Positions 42,190 through 52,620 of a DNA stretch of 64,000 bases are shown one piece after another. Position numbers and translations under genes: made by a program. The notes beneath the pieces are model-generated. The model searched no databases and was not told the DNA's origin. It worked only from the letters and a program-made list of their open reading frames with translations. The DNA lies in contig OZ244799.1 in NCBI GenBank assembly GCA_965219955.1, positions 2,592,001 to 2,656,000 of the forward strand. Reading direction: 5' to 3'. This DNA comes from a bacterium (GTDB lineage Bacteria; UBA8248). How positions within the stretch are numbered: the stretch's first letter is position 1; each line of letters begins with the position of its first letter.

Positions 42190-42294
42190 AGGGGATTGCC
42201 CGTTGGTTGCTTCCCTCGTGCTAGAGCAAACTGTATCGTTCCTTGCTATGAGTTTGAGTCCTCGATCAGGTAGCGGGAACAATGGGCAGCCCCT
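42190..42294 (+). ncRNA. three-way-junction RNA motif (diverged copy)
   Basis: P1 gggg(a)ttgcccgttg/caatgggcagcccc; tttgagtc loop; follows the GAFGAHR* stop. Confidence 0.55.
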
Positions 42295-42315
42295 GCTTGC
42301 GTTTCAGGCAAGCTG

Positions 42316-42413
42316 GCCGACACCCTGCCGCAGCTGGCACTTTACCTTGTGGATTGTGTCGCAGCAATTCCCGTCTTTCGCCAGCCCTGTAAGGGGTGTC
42401 GGCCTTTTTTTTT
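42316..42413 (+). ncRNA. putative structured RNA/terminator element (copy 2)
   Basis: ggccgacaccc/gggtgtcggcc stem with T9 tail. Confidence 0.35.
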
Positions 42414-42673
42414 GCCCGACCCAGACGCGCTCGCAACGAAAAATGTTCTTCAACCCGGACAGCCCTTCAGAAGCGGCATTGATAACCCCCATCAGACCAC
42501 GACCGAATATATATTGCGTCAGGCGAAGCCCTGGAGAGGAAATGGTATGGACGCCTTCCCGGCAACCGAGTGCCGCGGTTCGAGAGGGTCGACATGGATC
42601 CTCGATGATCTGTGGCACCCTGAGAAGCTCAAGGGGAAGACATAGTGTCTTCCCAGGCCAACCGGAGGGTCCA

Positions 42674-43702
42674 ATGATGAAGAATGGCAGAACGGTCGTC
42701 GGTGTGGATACGGCGAAAAGCGTGTTCCAGTTGTACTGGGTCGAGGTGGAGACGGGAAAAAGGATGTCCCTGAAGCTGACGCGGGCGAGGTTCCTCGAGC
42801 ACTTCGCCAATCGCGCTCCGTGCCTGATCGCGATGGAGGCGTACGGCGGCTCGCAGCACTGGGCGCGTCGTCTGCGGAAACTGGGCCACGAGGCGAGGTT
42901 GCTTCCGGCGAAGATGGTGAGGCCCTTCGTTGCCGGCAACAAGAATGATTCGCACGACGCGCGCGTGATCTGGACGGCGGTGCAACAGCCTGGGGTAAAG
43001 GCGGTTGCGATCAAGAGCGAGGAACAGCAGGCCGTCCTGGCGCTGCACCGCATGCGCCAGCAGCTGGTGAAGTTCCGCACGGCCCAGATCAACGGCTTGC
43101 GCGGCCTGTTGACCGAATACGGAGAGGTCATGCCACAAGGCCGGGCGGGCATGCGGCGAGACATGGTCGCAGCCCTCGGCCGGATATCGGAGCGACTGCC
43201 GACGATGGTCGTGGACGCCCTGCGAGAGCAATGGGCGCGCGTGGCCCGGCTCGACGAGGAGGTTCGCGGTATCGAGCGCCGCCTGAAGCTGTGGCATCAA
43301 GACAACGCCGAGAGCCGCAGGGTGGCGGAGATCCCCGGTGTCGGTTTGCCGGGCGCGACCGCTTTGGTGGCCGCGATGGGTGATCCCGCCGCGTTCAGTT
43401 CCGGTCGGGAGTTCGCCGCCTAGCTGGGGCTGACGCCCCGCCATGTCGGGACCGGCGGAAAGGTGCGCGTGCTCGGAATCTCCAAGCGGGGCGACAGGTA
43501 CCTGCGCACCTTGCTGATACACGGCGCCCGCGCCGCAATCGTCCACGGCAAGGCGCCGCGTGAATGGGTGTTGCGCCTGGCCGGACGGCGGCCCCCGAAC
43601 GTGGTCGTCGTCGCCCTGGCGAACAAGATGGCGCGCACGATCCGGGCCCTGCTGGCCCATGACCGGGAATACCAACGAAACTTTGTCGGCCATCCTGCGT
43701 AA
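42674..43702 (+). pseudogene. IS110 transposase with an internal TAG (43421-43423)
   Basis: VGVDTAK, KNDSHDA, REFAA*LGLTPRHVGTGGK. Confidence 0.9.
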
Positions 43703-43965
43703 GTCCGGATGGCAAAAGATAACACGAAACGATGAACGGAGGTGGCACGCCGAAGGATTGCGCAAGGCAGGATAAAGTGTGATGGCTAACAGGTCAGACC
43801 GCGGCCCGCAAAGTCTGTATGGCATCGAAGGCGAAAAGCCTTGAAGAGGAAATGAGGCGCGGGTCGGCTGATTCCATCAGGGCCGGCAGGCAAGAGCACC
43901 TGCACCGAAAGGCCGAATATAAAGCTGCAACCTGACAGTCAAAAGCACCGAATCCGCCTTTGCCA
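43703..43965 (+). ncRNA. putative seek/bridge RNA
   Basis: segments atggcatc, agaggaa and atataaa match the intron target flanks and the donor end. Confidence 0.6.
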
Positions 43966-44570
43966 CCGGGAAGGCGTCCATATAAAGGATGCCATGACCT
44001 GAAACCTCTCGTAGCGACCCGGCGGGTTCGACCCCCGCCCGGCAAAGGCCGAGCCGGCCAGCCGGAAGCGAGTCTTGCATGGCGTGCGGCAACGCGCGTC
44101 GTGAAGCGTAGACAGCAGGTGACGAAGCGGCGGGGTAAGCCTCGAAATCGGTCAATCGACGACGCCTTCATTGTTAATCGTGTGGGGGCAGCACCGGAAG
44201 CGCCGCTATCGGCGAGGCGCAACGGGTTGTCCGGGGTCGTGGACCGGCGCAAAGTCACGGGACGGGTCGCCAGGGAACCTGGGAGATCCTGCACTTGCCC
44301 GTGGGCAAGGATGCTGGGAAGGGGATGCCAGCATGCAAATCCAGAACCCGGCCCGTCGCCGGGCCTGTACGGCGGCGGGAGCGCTATATGGCGGACACGA
44401 ACCCCGCAGGCGCCCGCGGAGCCGACCGGCGAAAACAATAAGCCGAAGGACATGCGGGGGCAGGAAGTCGTAGCGCCCTGATAGTACCGCTGAGGGCGGG
44501 GAACCGTGGCCATCGGGACCCGCTGGAGGGAAGCGGGGCGTCATCTGTACAGAGCCACTGATGGGAAACG

Positions 44571-45238
44571 TTGGAGGAAACCCTGAGTTCCACGAACACG
44601 TACACGAAACAGCAGTGGATAGCCGAACAGGTGAGGGAGCATCCGGAACGGGTGTTCACGTCCCTGCACCACCTCATCGACGGCGAGTGGATGCGCGAAG
44701 CGTATCGCCGCACGCGCAAGGATGGGGCGAGGGGCATCGACGGCGTGAGTGCTGCCGACTACGAGAAGGACCTGGAGGCGAATCTTGACGACCTCCTGAG
44801 CCGGATGAAGTCGGGCCGCTACTTTGCGCCGCCGGTGCGCCGGCGCTACATCCCGAAGGCGGACGGCACGAAACGACCGCTCGGCATTCCGACGTTCGAA
44901 GACAAGGTGGCGCAACGGGCAATCCTGATGCTGCTGGAGCCGATTTACGAGACGGACTTTTTGACGTGCTCGTACGGCTTCCGGCCCGGACGGTCGGCTC
45001 ACGATGCCCTGGACGCACTTCGCACGGGCATCATGGAGCAGCGCCAACGATGGGTGATAGACGCGGATTTGAAAGCGTACTTCGACTCAATCCCGCACAC
45101 CCACCTGCGGTCATTCCTCGACCTGCGGATTAAGGACGGCGTCGTAAGGCGCATGATTGACAAATGGCTGAAAGCGGGGGTGCTCGAAGAGGGCACCGTT
45201 CACAGGCCGGTCGCCGGTACTCCTCAAGGTGGGGTCAT
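44571..45238 (+). CDS. ltrA: group II intron RT/maturase, N-terminal part
   Basis: GIDG, IPKADG..RPLGIPT, SYGFRPGRS, DADLKAYFDSI, GTPQGGV. Confidence 0.92.
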
Positions 45239-46889
45239 GACACCCTGAACGCAAAAGGCAACTCTGCTCTCCGGCGCCGCCGTCGTCGGGTTCCGATGGG
45301 ATCGGACTGCCACCGGACGCCCCCGGGATCGGGATGGAATGGCGAATCGTGATCTTCTCCTCACTGACCAGCACCTCCTTGACGAGAAGCCGGACAAGGC
45401 GCTGTTGTTCGCCGGTATCCAGGCTATGGGCGGAGGAGCGAAGCCGCGCCAGGAACCCGCTCAGCGTGTCGGCGAGCCGGAGGTAGGTTTCCCGATCCTT
45501 GACCTGCTCGACAACGGACTGCAGTTCACGATGAAGAGCCTGTTCCTGACGGCGTAGCCCGGGCGTTCTCTCGCGCAGTTCGTCGATGGTGATCAGCTCC
45601 TCCTGATAGGCATTGACCAGGCGGTCGATGCTCTTTCGTGTTCTGATCAACCGGCGCCGCAAGTCGGTCTCGCGCTGCCGGTTGGGGTCGGAGTCGCGGG
45701 CCGCCTCCAGACGCCGATCGATTTCGGCGCCGATCAGCGCCGGATCCTCAAGCAGGCGAACGACTTCGCTCCAGACAACGTCGTCAAGCAGATCCTGGCG
45801 CACCGGCCGATTGTCGCATAGCGGCCCGTTGAGATGCCGCCAGGCGTCGGAGCCCAGGCAGCGGTAATAGTAAATCGTGCGCGCGCTCGTCCGGGTCGAC
45901 GTGCGATACAGGGAATAGCCGCATTTTCGGCACGAGACCAGCCCCTGCACCACGCTGGGCGTCCTGGTCCGGCGCCGCCCGAGGGCCTTGTTCATCTCCA
46001 GCCGCTCTTCGGCCAGGGCAAAGGTCTCCTCGCTGACGACCGCCGGCACCGGAATCTCGATCCATTCCTCGCGCGGTTTCTCGTGACCGCCGGTGGTGGC
46101 GCCGGCCACGCCGCCGCGCAACCGCAAGGGGCGGGTCACGGTTTTTCGCGGCATCTGGCGGGTCTTGCCGAAGCACGCCTTGCCCTTGTACGCCGGGTTG
46201 CGCAGCATCGCCCACACGGTCGAACGCTCCCAGCGTCCGCGCCCGGAGGACGTGGGTACCGCCCGCTCGTTGAGCTTGCGGGTGATCTCGCCAATGCTCA
46301 TGTGGTCATGAGTATAGTAGCGATAGACTTCGCGAACCACCGATGCCTGAGGTTCGAGCACCTCATAGTAGGCATCGCTCTCGGAAGTTTTCTTGTGGTA
46401 GCGGTAGCCATAAGGCGCGCCTCCGAGAACCGCAACTTCACCACACTGCGCACGATGACGCTTGCCGCGACGGGAACGTTCCAGTATCTGTGCGCGCTCG
46501 TATTCCGCGATCATCCCCTGGAACTGGACGAGGAGGTTGTCTTCCGGGGTTTCCATCGACGGCGCGTTCACAAACACGGTCTCAACGCCATGGCGGGCCA
46601 ACTCTTCGATAATCAGCACCTGGTGGGCGTAGCGGCGGCTCAAACGGTCCGGGGCATGGACCACCAATGTATCGAAGCGCCCTTCCGCGGCGAGGTCCCT
46701 GATCCGCTCCAGCCCCGGGCGCTCGAGAACAGCGCCGCTGCAGCCGTCATCCTCGACGAGCATCTCCGGCGCGACGCTGTAGCCGTGGTTCCTGGCGTAT
46801 TCGACCAGCGCCTCGGTCTGGCTCGCGATCGTGCTGCTCTCCCTCTGCTGCTCGCCCGAGACCCGCGCATAAAGGGCTGCGACTTTCAT
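45111..46889 (-). CDS. large serine recombinase (resolvase + recombinase + zinc ribbon + coiled coil)
   Basis: YARVS catalytic Ser, DRLSR, PYGY, CRKC...YYRC zinc ribbon. Confidence 0.95.
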   Translation of the reverse strand: MKVAALYARVSGEQQRESSTIASQTEALVEYARNHGYSVAPEMLVEDDGCSGAVLERPGLERIRDLAAEGRFDTLVVHAPDRLSRRYAHQVLIIEELARHGVETVFVNAPSMETPEDNLLVQFQGMIAEYERAQILERSRRGKRHRAQCGEVAVLGGAPYGYRYHKKTSESDAYYEVLEPQASVVREVYRYYTHDHMSIGEITRKLNERAVPTSSGRGRWERSTVWAMLRNPAYKGKACFGKTRQMPRKTVTRPLRLRGGVAGATTGGHEKPREEWIEIPVPAVVSEETFALAEERLEMNKALGRRRTRTPSVVQGLVSCRKCGYSLYRTSTRTSARTIYYYRCLGSDAWRHLNGPLCDNRPVRQDLLDDVVWSEVVRLLEDPALIGAEIDRRLEAARDSDPNRQRETDLRRRLIRTRKSIDRLVNAYQEELITIDELRERTPGLRRQEQALHRELQSVVEQVKDRETYLRLADTLSGFLARLRSSAHSLDTGEQQRLVRLLVKEVLVSEEKITIRHSIPIPGASGGSPIPSEPDDGGAGEQSCLLRSGCHDPTLRSTGDRPVNGALFEHPRFQPFVNHAPYDAVLNPQVEE

Positions 46890-47043
46890 TCTCGTCTCCT
46901 ATCTCTCGTCTTCGGGCAGGGATTTTGCAGGCTTGATCGGGAACCAGTATCTCGTAGGCATTCTGGAGCCTGGCTGCGAACAGGCGATCGAAACTGTAAT
47001 CAAGTTCAACGCCGGGCAGCGAACCCGGGCGGCGCGCAGCCAT
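46747..47043 (-). CDS. small hypothetical protein (candidate directionality factor)
   Basis: between the regulator and the LSR, overlapping the LSR start; LDYSFDRLFAARLQNAYEILVP. Confidence 0.5.
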   Translation of the reverse strand: MAARRPGSLPGVELDYSFDRLFAARLQNAYEILVPDQACKIPARRREIGDENESRSPLCAGLGRAAEGEQHDREPDRGAGRIRQEPRLQRRAGDARRG

Positions 47044-47044
47044 G

Positions 47045-47365
47045 TCAATCCACGTCCGGGAGAAAGCGCCTCAGTGCCCGTGCGACGACGTCCCCGATGG
47101 CCTGGCCGCTGATCCTGGCGTGCGTACGCAGGGCTTGCGCCAACGCGCCCGGAATCTTGATGGTCATGGGAATCCGGGATTCGACCGGCTCGGCCGGACG
47201 GTCCATGGCCAGCGCCTGCTGAACGTAGCGGTAGGACTGCCGCTGCGATACGCCGAAACGCTGCGATAGCCGCACTACAGCCTCGTTCGTCGTGACGCCC
47301 TGTGCGAGCAGCGAGTAGGCGGCGTTGATCCGTTCGGCTTTCTGGGACTTCGATGATCGCGTCAT
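47045..47365 (-). CDS. HTH/RHH-like DNA-binding protein
   Basis: LSQRFGVSQRQSYRYV HTH; C-terminal MTIKIPGALAQALR..IGDVVARAL RHH-like segment. Confidence 0.7.
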   Translation of the reverse strand: MTRSSKSQKAERINAAYSLLAQGVTTNEAVVRLSQRFGVSQRQSYRYVQQALAMDRPAEPVESRIPMTIKIPGALAQALRTHARISGQAIGDVVARALRRFLPDVD

Positions 47366-47474
47366 TTGACATAATAATATTACCTCTTGAGACGAAGATC
47401 AAGTACCGAGCGATCCCGCCACGCCACAATCTGGCGCTCAAACTGGAAGTTGCCTTTTGCGTTCGGGGTGTCAT

Positions 47475-48147
47475 CTCGCCGATGCTCTCGAACATCTTCC
47501 TGCACCATGTGCTGGACAAGTGGTTCGAGGAATTGGCGAAGCCGCGTCTTAACGGACGGTGCCAACTGGTGCGATACGCCGATGACTTTGTCATCGCCTT
47601 CGAAGACCGCCACAGCGGCAAGCGATTGCTTGACGTGCTGGGCAAACGTCTGGGCCGATACGGACTCACGCTCCATGAGGCCAAGACGCGCTATGTGGAC
47701 TTCCGCCGGAGGCGTCCCTACGGGCGTCACTGGATGGCGTCGGCCACGACGTTCGACTTCCTCGGCTTCACCCACGTCTGGGGGCGGTCGATGCAAGGCA
47801 AGGACGTCGTTCGCCAAATCACGGCGAAAGGCCGCTTCGCCCGCGCGCTGAAATCGGTGCACGAGTGGTGCAAGAGACATCGGCACCTGCCGGTCAAGGC
47901 GCAGCATGACTATCTCGTCCGGGTGATACGAGGCCACTGCGCATATTACGGTCTGACAGGGAACGGCAAGCGTCTTCGGTGGTTCCGCTACCAAGTGGCT
48001 CGCACGTGGCGGAAGTGGCTTGCGCGCCGCAGCCGCCTGCGCCGGATGAACTGGGACCGGATGAACGCGCTTCTCTTGCGATACCCCCTTCCATTTGTCT
48101 CGTACGTGCGTTCTCGGCAAAGCTCCTTGAGCGAACCTGTCAGGTGA
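47475..48147 (+). CDS. ltrA: group II intron RT/maturase, C-terminal part
   Basis: (I)SPMLSNIFLH, RYADDFV, FDFLGF, thumb/X domain RGHCAYY; no endonuclease domain. Confidence 0.92.
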
Positions 48148-50116
48148 GGAACCGAGTGCGTCAGTCGCGCACGCTCGGCTCTGTGGGGGGCGGGGCGCAG
48201 CAATGCCCCCGCCTACCCGTAACCATTCGGCGGCAGGGTGATGGTTTGCGCGTAGCTCATCGCGGATAATCGAAGAGATTCCCCTGAAGGGCTGGTAACA
48301 CGATCCGGCATGTGGTAATCATGTCGGCATGAAGATCTGCACGGAAGCTGTTCAGGCGGAAGTTTCGTTGGCCGAGAGGCCGGATGAGCGATGGCCTCAT
48401 TCCCCCGGGTTGCCCGCAACCGCAGAGGCCTACTGGCGTTCGCTGTACGAGCGAGAACGTGCGCGCGCGGAGTCTGCGGAGGCGCGCTGTGAGGAGTTGC
48501 GGCTCAAGGAGGTGGATTCGCGTGCGCGGGCGGGTTCGCTGAAGTGGTGTCTCGACAACTGCCGGATGAAGCTAGCCGCGAGGGTCGGGAAGTTGAAGGA
48601 AGTCCGCCGCGCGGCGAAGAAGGACGTCGAGGCGCTCGAGGCGGAAGTGGCTCGTCTGGAGAAGCAGCTTCGCAAAGCGGGAGTGGAGCCGGGCAAGCCC
48701 GGCCCGATCGAGTCGCTGCGCAAGGAAGCCGCCCGGCTGCGCAAGGAGGTCACCCGGTTGAACAAGGCTCTCTCGGGCGCGCTGCCTGAGAAGGAGGCCG
48801 CGCGGCTGCGCCGGGCCGTGGAGAAGCGGGAGAAGACGCTTGAGTCACTGCGCAAGGAGCTTGAGGGGCGGGAGAAGGATGTGGCCCGGCTGGAGGATCA
48901 ACTGGCCTGGGAGAAGATGGAGACGGCGGATCACAAGAAGACGATTCAGTATCGTGAAGAGGAGCTAATCCGGCTCTACGGGAAGTTGCGGGAATTGCGC
49001 GACGAGTTGCGTGTCTCGCTCCGGGCCGCGGGCAGAGTGAAGGAGGGGCTGAAGGAGCGGCTGTTGCGCGCGAAGGAGGCGTTGCGCACGAGGTCGTCTC
49101 GTCGGGACGCGGAACTTCGCAAGGCCCTGGGGAGGTCGCGGCGCCAGAAGACGGCGATCGGGTCGCTGTCGAGGGAGAACGGGCGGTTGCGCCGTGCGCT
49201 GCGCAAGTCGGAGGCCCGCCGTGCGCGTCTGGAGGCCGAGCTCGCGAAGCTTCGCGCGACCGGAGCGGTGCTGGCGAGGAGGCTGTTCGGGCGCAGGAGC
49301 GAGCGGCAGGAGAGGCCGCGCACCGGGCGAAGGCGCGGCGGACAGCCCGGCGCCCGGGGCCATGGCCGCACCCCGCGGCCCGCGCTCGATGAGAGGACGG
49401 AAGTCCGCAACCCGCCGGCCGGTGCGCGCGTCTGCGCCGCTTGCGGGAAGCCCTACGCGGCGAACGGCGCCCGTGTGTCGCGCATCGTCGAGATCGAAGT
49501 CTCGGCGTACAGGCGCGTCATCCACCGTACGAGGTGGCGCCGGGGGTGCGGTTGCGCGTCCTCGCCCACCGAGGTGTCGGCGCCGCCCGCGCCGCGCCTG
49601 TTCGCGGGCACGGCTTACGGGACGAGCGTGTGGGCGCGCCTGCTGTTCGAACGCTACGCCTGCTTCCGCCCGCTCAACCGGGTCGCCGCGTGGTTGTCGG
49701 ACCAGGGGCTTCCGATCTCGGCGGGGACGCTGGGCGACAGCGCGCACCGGTTCATGCCGCTGTTCGAACCGCTGAACGGGGCGATCCTCGCCCGCCAGAA
49801 CGAGGCGTCGGTGCGCCACGGGGACGAAACGACCTGGCGCGTTCAGTCGCTTCGCGAGCAAGGACGCTCGAACCGCGCCTGGCTGTGGGCCTCGCTGAGC
49901 GCAGACTCCGTCTACTTCCACGTCGACCCCTCGCGGTCTGCTGAGGTCGCGATGAAGCTCTTCGGCGCGGCCGGCTCCCATACGGTACTCGTCTGCGACC
50001 GCTACAGCGCCTACAAGAAGCTGGCGCGCAGGCCCGAGAGGAACTGGCCGCCCTGCCGGCGCAGGCGCGCGAGGGCAAGGCGCTTCGCTCGCTGCTGAAC
50101 CACCGCGAGGGGCTGA

Positions 50117-51460
50117 GGGTATGTCCGATTATCTGTGTAAGCCACGGTCTCGGGTCTTTGGGCTTTCCTGGCTCAGCTAGCTGAGCCAGGAAAGCGATCC
50201 TCGAACAGAATGGCAAATTGCCCCTTCGCGGCGGTCCAGTCAACTGGGCGGCGCCAACGGACTCCGGCGTTGCGTATCGCCAGGAACAGCAACTTCGTCG
50301 CCGCCTCGTCGCTGGGAAAGCTTCCCCGGGTCTTGATGATCTTGCGCAACGACCGATGCAGGCTCTCCAGGGCGTTGGTCGTATAGATCATCTTCCGGAT
50401 GGCCGGCGGGAAGGCGAACATCGGCGCCACATGCTCCCAGGCGCGACGCCAGGCGGGAGCCACCGCCGGGTAGCGCTCCCCCCAGCGGGCTTCGAACTCA
50501 TCGAGCCTGGCCGCCGCGGCTTCGAGCGTCTCGGCCCGGTAGACCGCCTTGAGATCGGGCATGACCTTCCGGCGGTCCTTCCAGGCGACGAACGACATCG
50601 AATTGCGTATCAGATGGACGATGCAGGTCTGGACCGCGGTGCGCGGGAATACCGTGCCGATGGCGTCGGGAAAGCCTGCGAGCCCGTCCACCACCGCGAC
50701 CAGAATGTCCTGCAGGCCCCGGGCCTGGAGCTCGTTCATCACCTTGAGCCAGAACTTCGCCCCCTCGGTCTGCTCGATCCAAAGCCCCAGCACCTCCTTG
50801 TCGCCCTCGGAGGTAATCGCCAGGGCGAGGTAGACCGCCTTGTTCCGAACCAGGCCCTCGTCGCGGATCTTCACCCGCAGCGCGTCGAAGAACACGACCG
50901 GATAAACAGGGTCCAGGGGCCGGTTCTGCCACTCCCGCACCTCCTCTAGCACGGCGTCGGTCACCCGGCTGATCAGGTCCGGCGATACCGATACCCCGTA
51001 CAACTCCTCGAGGTGGCCCCGGATCTCGCGCACGCTCATCCCGCGCGCGTACAGCGACACGATGCGCTCGTCGAAACCCTCGAGGCGCCGCTCCCCCTTG
51101 GGCACGATCGCCGGCTCGAACGTCCCGTTGCGGTCCCGGGGAACCGCCAGGTCCAACTCGCCATCATCGCTCAGAACCGTCTTGCCGGAATGCCCGTTGC
51201 GGCTGTTGCCACTACCTCGTCCGGCTGGGTCTCCCTTCTCGTAGCCGAGGTGCTCGCTCAACTCCGCGCCCAGCGCGCGCTCCACAAGAGCCTCCTTGAG
51301 CTGCTTGAACAGCCCGTCCTCGCCCAACAGGTCTTCCGGCTTCTCGTAGCCGGACAGCAACTCGTCCAATAGCTCAGGTCTCAGTCTCGTCATCAAAGGT
51401 CCTCCTCCTGGTGAAGTGTGAACCCTCGACCCTTACTTACACAAGACTTCGGACACTCTC
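50117..51460 (-). mobile_element. IS256 family element, copy B
   Basis: inverted copy of 40637-41980; 8-bp TSD ggggctga. Confidence 0.95.
50173..51396 (-). CDS. IS256 family transposase
   Basis: identical protein to 40701-41924. Confidence 0.95.
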   Translation of the reverse strand: MMTRLRPELLDELLSGYEKPEDLLGEDGLFKQLKEALVERALGAELSEHLGYEKGDPAGRGSGNSRNGHSGKTVLSDDGELDLAVPRDRNGTFEPAIVPKGERRLEGFDERIVSLYARGMSVREIRGHLEELYGVSVSPDLISRVTDAVLEEVREWQNRPLDPVYPVVFFDALRVKIRDEGLVRNKAVYLALAITSEGDKEVLGLWIEQTEGAKFWLKVMNELQARGLQDILVAVVDGLAGFPDAIGTVFPRTAVQTCIVHLIRNSMSFVAWKDRRKVMPDLKAVYRAETLEAAAARLDEFEARWGERYPAVAPAWRRAWEHVAPMFAFPPAIRKMIYTTNALESLHRSLRKIIKTRGSFPSDEAATKLLFLAIRNAGVRWRRPVDWTAAKGQFAILFEDRFPGSAS

Positions 51461-51777
51461 GGGGCTGAGCGTCTTCCTGGAGCGTCCCTCGGTACCGATG
51501 GACAACAACGCCATTGAGAGAGTGCTCAGACGTCCCGTGATCGGCAGGCGGCTCTCGTTCGGCTCCGTGAGCGAGGCCGGCGCCCGGTTCACGGCGATGA
51601 TGTACTCCGTCCTCGGTACACTCTCGTTAAACGGGGTCGATCCGCTTCGCTGGCTGGAGGCATGGCTCACGGCCTGCGCGGAGAACGGCGGCCGCCCACC
51701 CGGGGACCTCTCCGCGTGGCTGCCCTGGTCGATGGGCGCGGAGCGTCGTCGCGCCCTCACGGCGCCGGGATGACGCC

Positions 51778-52620
51778 GTGACCGAGTGCCGCTACTACGG
51801 ACGCGACTTCACGACGGAAGAGATGGCGCTGCTGCGCGCGCTGATCGCAGGCCCACCTGCGCTCAACCGCCATGCGCTGTCGAAGGAGTTCTGCCGCCGC
51901 ATCGGCTGGTTCAAGCCCGACGGCGGGCTCAAGGACATGATGGCCCGGGTGACCATGCTCGCCATGCACAGGGACGGCCTGATCTCGCTCCCCCCGCCGA
52001 AGCACCCCCGAGCCCAGGCCAAGCCGATCGTCTTCGGACCCGACACCGAACCTCCCCTCATCCCGGCGCCCGAGACCCTTGATGAGGTCCGCCCCCTCGA
52101 TATGCGCATCGTCGTGCGCGGAACCCGCGAGGGCAGGCTCTGGAACGAGTTCGTCGCACGCTATCACTACCTCGGCTACAAGACCCTCGTCGGCGCCCAG
52201 ATGCGCTACGCCGTCCACGACCGCGACGGCAGGCCCCTCGCCATGCTCGGCTTCTCCACCGCCGCGTGGAAACTCGCCCCGCGCGATGCCTTCATCGGCT
52301 GGACCCCGCAGCTGCGCGAGAAGAACCTCCCCCTCGTGGTCGACAACCCGAGGTTCCTCATCCTGCCCTGGATCAAAATCCCCAACCTCGGCTCCCACCT
52401 CCTCGCCATCGTCCGCAGGCGCCTGCCCGGAGACTGGACCGAACGCTATGGCACCACCCCCGTCCTCGTCGAGACCTTCGTCGAGACGCCGCGATACACC
52501 GGCGCCGTCTACAGGGCTTCGGGGTGGATTCACGTCGGAACCACACAGGGACGTGGGCGCTACGACAGGGACAGACGCTTCGACAAGCCCAGAAACTGGA
52601 AGCAAGTCCTCAACCGGTAA
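51778..52620 (+). CDS. DUF4338 (DruA-like) domain protein
   Basis: YHYLGY, PRDAFIGW, RFLILPW, NLGSHLL, LVETFVE, YRASGW. Confidence 0.85.
   Translation: MTECRYYGRDFTTEEMALLRALIAGPPALNRHALSKEFCRRIGWFKPDGGLKDMMARVTMLAMHRDGLISLPPPKHPRAQAKPIVFGPDTEPPLIPAPETLDEVRPLDMRIVVRGTREGRLWNEFVARYHYLGYKTLVGAQMRYAVHDRDGRPLAMLGFSTAAWKLAPRDAFIGWTPQLREKNLPLVVDNPRFLILPWIKIPNLGSHLLAIVRRRLPGDWTERYGTTPVLVETFVETPRYTGAVYRASGWIHVGTTQGRGRYDRDRRFDKPRNWKQVLNR

Follow-up and report, generated by a model that had tools for sequence, protein, structure and literature searches.

A small serine-recombinase element interrupts the reverse transcriptase gene of a group II intron and has a recombinase reading frame that crosses its own ends

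The 64,000-nucleotide stretch analysed here (the window; contig OZ244799.1 of assembly GCA_965219955.1, positions 2,592,001 to 2,656,000, from a bacterium of the GTDB lineage UBA8248) holds a group II intron whose reverse transcriptase (RT) gene is split by a 2234-bp insert encoding a large serine recombinase (LSR). On the plus strand the RT frame reads ...GTPQGGV up to 45236, is followed by AT (45237–45238), the first two bases of the next codon, and restarts at 47473 with ATC TCG CCG, reading ISPMLSNIFLH...YADD. The N-terminal half (44571–45238, +) has 222 aa and the C-terminal half (47473–48147, +), with a maturase-like region, has 224 aa. Both match Pfam RVT_1, and the C half shows a weak GIIM match (E 0.03). 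As the N half covers RVT_1 profile positions 1–127 and the C half positions 125–204, the halves are contiguous parts of one RT domain cut at a single point. Reading frames and profile coverage therefore uphold the statement of an earlier note, made from the letters of this DNA, that the RT breaks between ...PQGGV and ISP.... Its claim that excision would restore a 446-aa RT also holds, as both halves are open.

Ribozyme domains lie around the RT/maturase open reading frame (ORF), which identifies the host of the insert as a group II intron. The D1–D4 region matches Rfam group-II-D1D4-6 at 44029–44246 with 127 bits, and domain V/VI matches Intron_gpII at 48147–48222 with 34.4 bits (E 4e-4), under the gathering score of 40. 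The intron with its insert is taken here as 43986–48219 (+), the unit that recurs in two same-genus genomes (G011 and G020) at 93–96% identity by blastn. The interrupted RT is the sole RT found in the window's genome. A second intron-like stretch in this genome (L003, G000:C1:1950093–1950720) is 74% identical over 625 nt to the 5' ribozyme part of the intron. No RT was found near it, so it provides no in-genome empty site, and it is probably an ORF-less or truncated intron. The frame of the RT C half is also open backwards into the insert to an ATG at 47353, giving a 264-aa ORF (47353–48147, +), and the C-terminal RT/maturase part could in principle be expressed from there.

The insert occupies 45239–47472, and its ends agree with those of 63 complete relatives. 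It is single copy in this genome and cargo-free; its three genes, all on the minus strand, encode in order a helix-turn-helix and ribbon-helix-helix (HTH-RHH) protein, a small ORF (orfX) and the LSR. Two copies of AT, the putative crossover dinucleotide, flank it (45237–45238 and 47473–47474), the first within GTCAT (45234–45238), which is common to both junctions. A repeat search found inverted arms of 27 nt (45237–45263 and 47448–47474) that are 96% complementary (26/27), or 24/25 without the AT. The LSR-side terminal repeat (45239–45263) is a P-type half-site that also codes for ...SCLLRSGC of the LSR, and the HTH-side repeat (47448–47472) lies within a tail exon described below. Across the family the arms at both ends follow the consensus CACGCCCCGAACGCAAAAGGTAACTT, of which the core ACGCAAAAGGTAAC is nearly invariant. 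Because the arms are alike, joining the ends would give a near-perfect palindromic attP. The only promoter-like site found in the element is a sigma-70-like TTGATC-17-TATTAT (47374–47402, −; 1 site against 0.3 expected), directly upstream of the HTH-RHH start, and its positions are conserved in the family. The gene content, the 24/25 repeats and the duplicated AT (GTCAT) all stand as the earlier note had read them; of the 2236 bp that it counted between the RT halves, 2234 bp lie between the AT dinucleotides.

The recombinase combines a catalytic domain bearing a nucleophilic serine with Recombinase and zinc-ribbon domains, as large serine recombinases do. Its Pfam matches (E 3e-34 to 5e-9) are Resolvase (PF00239, E 3.3e-34, residues 4–150), Recombinase (PF07508, E 1.2e-19) and Zn_ribbon_recom (PF13408, E 5.2e-9). 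Across 33 aligned LSR sequences, R9, S11 and the YARVS motif around them do not vary. A coiled coil is predicted from the sequence and from the modelled interface with orfX. The closest PDB relative is the SPbeta integrase (9dxh, E 4.5e-13, aligned over residues 48–523), and the top PDB sequence match, 9dxd, is the same integrase fused to YotN. The catalytic domain of TnpX is also among the PDB matches (2mhc, E 1.6e-7). The XisF model matches below threshold (97 bits, cut-off 375). The protein falls outside the IS607 family, as NF033518 reached 38 bits against a cut-off of 110 and matched the catalytic domain alone.

A pattern scan of species-representative genomes with the LSR gave at least 560 relatives among the 600 matches listed. 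The best 80 loci, with LSR identities of 60–81% and from many phyla, were kept for the family analyses. A tblastn search with five proteins of the window showed all three element genes together in nearly all 80 loci and RT halves abutting the elements, the N half ending at residue ~222 and the C half beginning at residue 1. We placed the element ends by the conserved terminal repeat and classified 160 junctions; the end was not located in 19 and the flank was shorter than 28 nt in 9, leaving 132 evaluable. An RT half broken at the same codon adjoins 121 of these 132, recognized by motif and tblastn in 92, by tblastn only in 4 and by a short motif only in 25, and 11 junctions were classed as not RT. 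At the RT junctions the motif is QG(G/A/S)(V/P) before the break and (I/V)SP after it. Recurrence of the same ends and the same RT break in so many junctions, drawn from 80 other loci, puts the arrangement far beyond chance. Two non-RT flanks, on the right of L047 and on the left of L048, have a similar short stretch, ...TGGCA(A/G)CAAGGCTA..., which hints at a secondary target or a common neighbouring element.

The flanking RTs are 25–92% identical to that of the window. We tested 44 C-side flanks for RT domains (43 and the window, chosen from 59 candidates because they begin with xSP and are 150 aa or longer) and found RVT_1 in all of them and GIIM, the group II maturase domain, in 34. An Rfam scan of 11 chosen loci detected group II intron RNA next to the RT in 10 of them, with domains of classes D1D4-2, -3, -4 and -6. 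Cultured strains of Mesorhizobium (60% LSR identity), Streptomyces (50%) and Rhodococcus (49%) have the same layout on finished plasmids, where PGAP annotates an RT fragment, a CopG-family RHH protein, a recombinase and a maturase-domain fragment. Carriers in culture include Mesorhizobium sp. AR02 (pMspAR02c), Bradyrhizobium elkanii USDA 76 and Nitrococcus mobilis Nb-231. A distant clade at 41–43% LSR identity (Nitrobacter, Skermanella, Microvirga and P. putida pDK1) is without the RHH gene and without RT flanks.

LSRs exchange strands at a central dinucleotide, and PQGG is among the most conserved RT motifs. Among 57 unique flanks, the N-side dinucleotide is AT in 29, GT in 13, CT in 6, GC in 4, AG in 2, TT in 2 and TA in 1; on the C side of 57 unique flanks it is AT in 31 and GT in 13. 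Read outward from the centre, the two target half-sites are alike (AT-C-x-C-x-CCGC...) and also resemble the proximal part of the arms. The RT motif DNA thus appears quasi-symmetric, as an LSR dimer would require. The LSR is co-directional with the RT in 27 loci and opposite in 16, the element in the window being of the opposite kind. The occurrence of both orientations is in keeping with the palindromic attP and central AT that the earlier note had proposed. Its suggestion that group II intron RT genes serve as attB at PQGG agrees with the domain and RNA counts above, and the check it had named, the flanks of homologues of the LSR and both small ORFs, came out as it expected, with the three genes recurring together beside split RTs.

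The course of the recombinase ORF through the terminal repeat is a feature absent from that note. In the integrated state the LSR ORF (45111–46889, −, 592 aa) consists of 550 aa encoded in the element (46889–45239) and 42 read-out codons antisense to the RT. In all 68 loci whose LSR-side end was located, the LSR frame reaches the end of the element without a stop codon, and the ORF reads out 17 to 1190 nt into the adjoining DNA, with the window's stop at 45111. Only when the ends are joined, in a circle or a head-to-tail tandem, does the frame continue into the other end of the element, where 30 codons and a TAA form a tail exon (47380–47472, −). The joined form stops at +89 to +95 nt in 62 of 64 elements, the exceptions being L034, with a frameshifted 3' end, and L049, a contig-end artefact. 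Full-length database homologues of the LSR span about 554 to 865 aa among the entries listed, a variation explained by read-out into arbitrary flanks.

The tail frame is open from element position 1 to 88, 91 or 94 in all 47 non-redundant elements; in most of them the other two frames meet a stop by position 8–41 or 21–33. Tails differ in length by multiples of three. In the part of the tail beyond the terminal repeat, pairwise differences per codon position are.375/.341/.608, compared with.388/.278/.584 in the HTH gene. Of the differing tail codons 41% are synonymous, whereas the other frames give 9% and 6%. Conservation extends to the peptide, in which F9, R19 and D25 are invariant and the short motifs FxFERxIxGWR and LDLRRKR occur. 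The stop codon of the tail overlaps the −10 box of the promoter-like site. In actinobacterial elements the frame is likewise open, for 30–34 codons. Two metagenome contigs (L097 and L099) have an LSR ORF that continues over the junction for 31 codons, which encode the conserved tail. The coding status of this putative exon is well supported by its pattern of conservation. Integration severs the last ~31 of ~581 LSR codons and leaves the catalytic and DNA-binding domains intact. A mimicry of the orfX motif by the LSR tail (FxFERxI against YaFDRLl) was also considered and stays no more than an idea; hhalign pairs exactly those 7 columns, with a probability of only 1.4%.

The first gene of the element (47045–47365, −) encodes a 106-aa DNA-binding protein with an N-terminal three-helix HTH and a C-terminal RHH, as judged from the alignment and an AlphaFold model (pLDDT 90). 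Mean column identity in the family is 62%. The model places the HTH at residues 6–53, followed by a linker and a strand-helix-helix unit typical of RHH proteins, and homologues are labelled 'ribbon-helix-helix protein, CopG family' by PGAP. A fold search with the model returned nothing at E <= 0.001; partial, non-significant likenesses were to HTH proteins (Mu transposase I-beta, KorA, ArdK) and RHH proteins (Arc, NikA). No match above cut-off was found for either small protein in Pfam or NCBIfam. We take the HTH-RHH protein to be a putative regulator or end-binding accessory protein.

The second gene, orfX (46747–47043, −, 98 aa), overlaps the LSR start by 143 nt and is a candidate recombination directionality factor (RDF). 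Its N-terminal ~40 residues are conserved, its unique part has coding periodicity (.327/.359/.571), and most relatives have it open for 90–106 aa, with L045, L051 and L078 as broken exceptions. A complex prediction of orfX with LSR residues 300–550 scored 0.75, the best control scoring 0.00; partner pLDDT was at least 69, and contacts agreed between runs in at least 82%. The predicted contacts involve orfX residues 10–38 and LSR residues 363–397 and 479–521, that is, the base of the coiled coil and the last strands of the zinc domain. RDFs are reported to bind that LSR region (PMC12286644). The model supports binding of orfX to the LSR as a prediction. In most relatives the overlap with the LSR start is 125–152 nt, in another frame, with a conserved stop position. 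In the overlap (element positions 584–726, window 46889–46747) third positions of the LSR are slightly more constrained (.486 vs.558), and it may be a true dual-coding stretch.

Metagenome contigs provide views of the locus with and without the element. A Logan contig from run X9, a sponge metagenome, passes from 45233 to 47470 and leaves out 2236 nt, with 5 letters shared at the joint, and so carries an uninterrupted RT; the joint was called with sides of 30 and a likeness threshold of 90, and the contig may stem from a related strain or a paralogue. In X10 and X11, contigs with other RT copies run through ...PQGGVISP... without a break. These contigs show unoccupied targets, not excision. 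In the window AT stands on both sides of the insert, and the exact joined form is present in a metagenome contig; across the family the dinucleotides of the two sides match in some pairs and differ in others, as set out below. A pattern scan found joined element ends in four metagenome contigs (L096–L099). As L097 and L099 carry two diverged copies, and L096 and L098 have RT on the far side, these contigs are better read as head-to-tail tandems than as free circles. The earlier note had advised mining for the circle junction and the restored RT; the uninterrupted RT was recovered, and joined ends appeared only as probable tandems. Head-to-tail junctions include copies just 80–84% identical. 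Integration beside a resident copy apparently yields tandems that give the upstream LSR back its native tail.

Considering all of these data, we believe that 45239–47472 is very probably an autonomous site-specific element of insertion sequence (IS) size, with the LSR as its transposase and, as its target, the DNA of the group II intron RT motif that reads PQG(G/A)(V) before the break and (I/V)SP(L)L(A/S)N after it. It looks like a parasite of another parasite. Copies within one genome speak to what moves: in L008/L009, L046/L047, L057/L060, L023/L025/L026 and L006/L037, for example, they are 99.9–100% identical exactly from end to end. Identity that starts and stops at the element ends marks the element, and not the intron, as what moves, and indicates recent movement between unrelated RT genes.

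An improbable alternative is that the element spreads mainly inside the intron RNA by retrohoming, with the RT supplied in trans or after transient excision, and that the LSR serves occasional hops. Its place in the ORF region of the intron would suit such a passenger, and so would the composite of intron and element found at 93–96% identity in three contexts and orientations beside an IS66-like element (in the window's genome, G011 and G020) and the 4.5 kb, flanks included, that L019 and L020 have in common. However, copy identity ends exactly at the element ends in 5 of the genome groups compared, where the flanking RTs are unrelated, so riding in an intron is unneeded to explain the spread. 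Moreover, four intron RNA classes are occupied, no other RT was found in this genome to act in trans, and independent site-specific insertion accounts equally well for the three contexts.

Less probable still is a domesticated, excisable gene switch, comparable to skin in sigK, SPbeta in spsM or the fdxN element, in which the insert would be a regulator and not a parasite. The exact interruption with both RT halves open and a 446-aa ORF recoverable by excision, the predicted RDF-like partner, the SPbeta integrase as closest solved relative, the sub-threshold XisF match and the presence of a single copy in the only RT of this genome are all in keeping with a switch. Against it, some genomes hold many 99.9–100% identical copies in different introns, and both orientations occur. 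LSRs that are 81% identical occur in metagenome-assembled genomes (MAGs) labelled Binatia, Alphaproteobacteria and Spirochaetia, a spread across phyla, yet carriers are patchy, numbering 2 among 22 genomes of the genus and 3 among 51 of the phylum. Copies in the same-genus relative G020 have TAG stops, which indicates decay, and there are tandem arrays and reshuffled flanks. These are the marks of a selfish, recently mobile element. Finally, an ordinary integrative element of loose target, its RT position being a coincidence or an annotation or assembly artefact, might be argued from the 11 non-RT junctions and the many carriers that are MAGs, and is effectively refuted by the 121 of 132 junctions at one RT codon, the same architecture on the finished plasmids of cultured strains and the presence of the stretch in independent metagenomes.

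For the site-specific parasite that we favor, a possible pathway is as follows. LSR dimers would dock on both P-type arms and on the RT motif with its quasi-symmetry, and strands would be exchanged at the central dinucleotide, usually AT; as AT and arms are symmetric, either orientation would result. Insertion would disable the intron RT/maturase; the earlier note had named silenced retrohoming, an excisable switch and travel inside intron RNA as possible consequences. An integrated copy would make an LSR with an arbitrary tail, and the HTH-RHH protein would regulate the single promoter. The LSR, aided by the RDF-like small protein, would excise the element by attL x attR exchange and so return the RT frame to its full length. 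Joining of the ends would recreate the palindromic attP together with the full-length recombinase gene, and the native LSR would then integrate the circle into another RT motif or, producing tandems, beside a resident copy. The choice between integration and excision might be set by the state-dependent C-terminus together with the co-transcribed orfX at the base of the coiled coil. As orfX is co-transcribed and overlaps the LSR start in both states, only the LSR C-terminus changes, and we propose it as the directionality switch; the odds are somewhat against this proposal, and we offer it tentatively. The fuller picture, a self-splitting bacterial serine recombinase whose state-dependent tail competes or cooperates with an RDF-like protein at the coiled-coil hinge and which silences and releases introns across phyla, is a conjecture of slightly lower standing.

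Several observations weigh against parts of this account. Among the 11 non-RT junctions, the loci L037 and L047 are non-RT on both sides, although to the eye the DNA of the L037 site remains similar to the RT target. Of the 25 junctions assigned by short motif alone, one or more (L008, right side) is apparently a false call. The main observation at odds with a textbook LSR concerns the crossover: of 44 pairs of flanking dinucleotides, 28 match between the sides and 16 do not, and canonical LSRs are not known to tolerate a mismatched core. Tolerance of a single mismatch followed by replication is a possible cause, as it predicts exactly such pairs; flank exchange between copies and mutation are other possible causes. 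The product of orfX alone folds poorly (pLDDT 60, one helix at 17–33). The mark applied to the complex score was attained by 58 of 80 solved complexes and by only 2 of the 110 mismatched pairs; that calibration holds only roughly as our own alignments were used, and the pass may reflect likeness to the solved SPbeta integrase-YotN complex (9dxd). The native tail was absent from 20 fetched database proteins of ~580 aa, out of 120 listed, and the role given to the tail is purely inferred. No recombination, excision or free circle was observed, the metagenome data being assembled contigs and not reads.

LSR-driven elements, gene-intervening LSR elements and small serine-recombinase IS are already known. 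As in the clostridial transposons Tn4451/Tn4453 (TnpX) and Tn5397 (TndX), an LSR would here be the sole transposase and act via a circular form, and joining of the ends would matter for recombinase expression. Lyras and Rood reportedly described in 2000 a promoter formed across the circle joint. Elements of the Tn4451/Tn5397 type are 6–21 kb long, carry resistance cargo and have GA dinucleotide ends, looser targets and a complete recombinase gene. In contrast, the present element has 2.2 kb, no cargo, 26-nt perfect-type inverted ends, a core of AT or GT, one RT motif as target and a recombinase ORF that crosses the joint; no GA class is found among the 57 N-side dinucleotides in RT orientation. 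The skin element (SpoIVCA), SPbeta (SprA/SprB), the gerE 'gin' element and the cyanobacterial fdxN element (XisF) likewise interrupt an ORF precisely by means of an LSR with or without a small RDF, and their excision restores the gene; the predicted orfX site coincides with the site reported for RDFs. Such gene-intervening elements are single-copy and host-timed and lie in host developmental genes, whereas the present one is multi-copy, crosses phyla, inserts in both orientations and targets another selfish element. With IS607 it shares a minimal, IS-sized build around a serine recombinase as transposase; IS607 transposases are small and have an N-terminal HTH, and their elements are without inverted ends or strong site specificity.

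The nearest precedent found for the split gene is the SSV-type suicidal integrase of archaeal viruses and plasmids, in which the recombination site lies inside the recombinase ORF and integration partitions the gene (PMC8371274; PMC7253208); the first of these sources, a 2021 review, has them as tyrosine recombinases exclusive to archaea. Here too the att site lies within the recombinase's own ORF and the gene is split by integration. Unlike the fragmented SSV-type gene, this one encodes a serine recombinase in bacterial genomes and loses only its last codons, and we consider it an analogue, not a member, of that group. The literature that we searched, including PMC6907783 and PMC3091744, with subscription journals and supplements outside the search, contained neither an LSR element in group II intron RTs nor a bacterial recombinase split by its own site. 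The earlier note had known of no described family, and the search likewise found none. Large LSR surveys, such as that of Durrant et al. (2022), may list such proteins or sites in their supplements. What appears new is the use of retroelement catalytic-motif DNA as a target across intron classes and phyla, the minimal symmetric architecture and the self-split serine recombinase gene.

With relatives numbering in the hundreds among species-representative genomes, this looks like a widespread DNA parasite specialized on a retroelement, and a protein collection holds thousands of related recombinase entries (E <= 1e-30), not all of them shown to belong to the RT-targeting clade. Recognition of the most conserved stretch of the RT would allow the element to cross intron classes and phyla and to knock out an RT/maturase, possibly reversibly. 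A recombinase gene completed across its own attP would extend the suicidal-integrase principle to bacteria and to the serine family, and suggests a state-dependent way of setting directionality. If the conjecture above is true, this would be the first self-splitting recombinase of the bacterial serine family, and the element a hyper-parasite, a cargo-free device for integration and excision aimed at a universally conserved RT motif. A compact LSR, a palindromic donor site of ~50 bp, a predicted 40-aa RDF and a natural target in many genomes might also make a useful tool. For annotation, loci now labelled as an unrelated "recombinase", "CopG" and two RT fragments could be recognized as one unit, with varied recombinase lengths as read-out artefacts of the integrated state.

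Dispersed copies have also been rearranged. RT half-flanks are reshuffled among five copies in one Pseudomonadales MAG (L016–L020); L034 and L053 have RT-N on both sides, and L021 and L033 have RT-C on both sides. This suggests inversions or translocations by recombination between dispersed copies. In G020 (L094/L101) the element is inverted relative to window 45237–47474 in the same intron lineage, flanks and element being ~93% identical, and the intron sits in another context; the element may have flipped in place by way of its symmetric sites or have been inserted separately. In two loci of one Alphaproteobacteria MAG (L005 and L007) the element is broken in the small-ORF region by inserts of ~3.5 kb and ~5.3 kb that are partly repeated.

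The surroundings of the intron form a nest of mobile elements, as it sits between an IS110-type transposase gene (42203–43825; DEDD_Tnp_IS110), apparently frameshifted and continuing in another frame at 43463–43702, and an IS66-type transposase gene (48329–50098). When window 43986–52595 was compared with the genomes of the genus, the composite of intron and element was found beside the IS66-like element in the window's genome, in G011 (L100) and in G020 (L101), in three different positions or orientations. G020 also carries, at the other end of the IS66-like element, an ORF-less mini-intron made of 653 nt from the 5' part and 95 nt from the 3' part (L101:13767–14547), and these introns seem to target IS ends.

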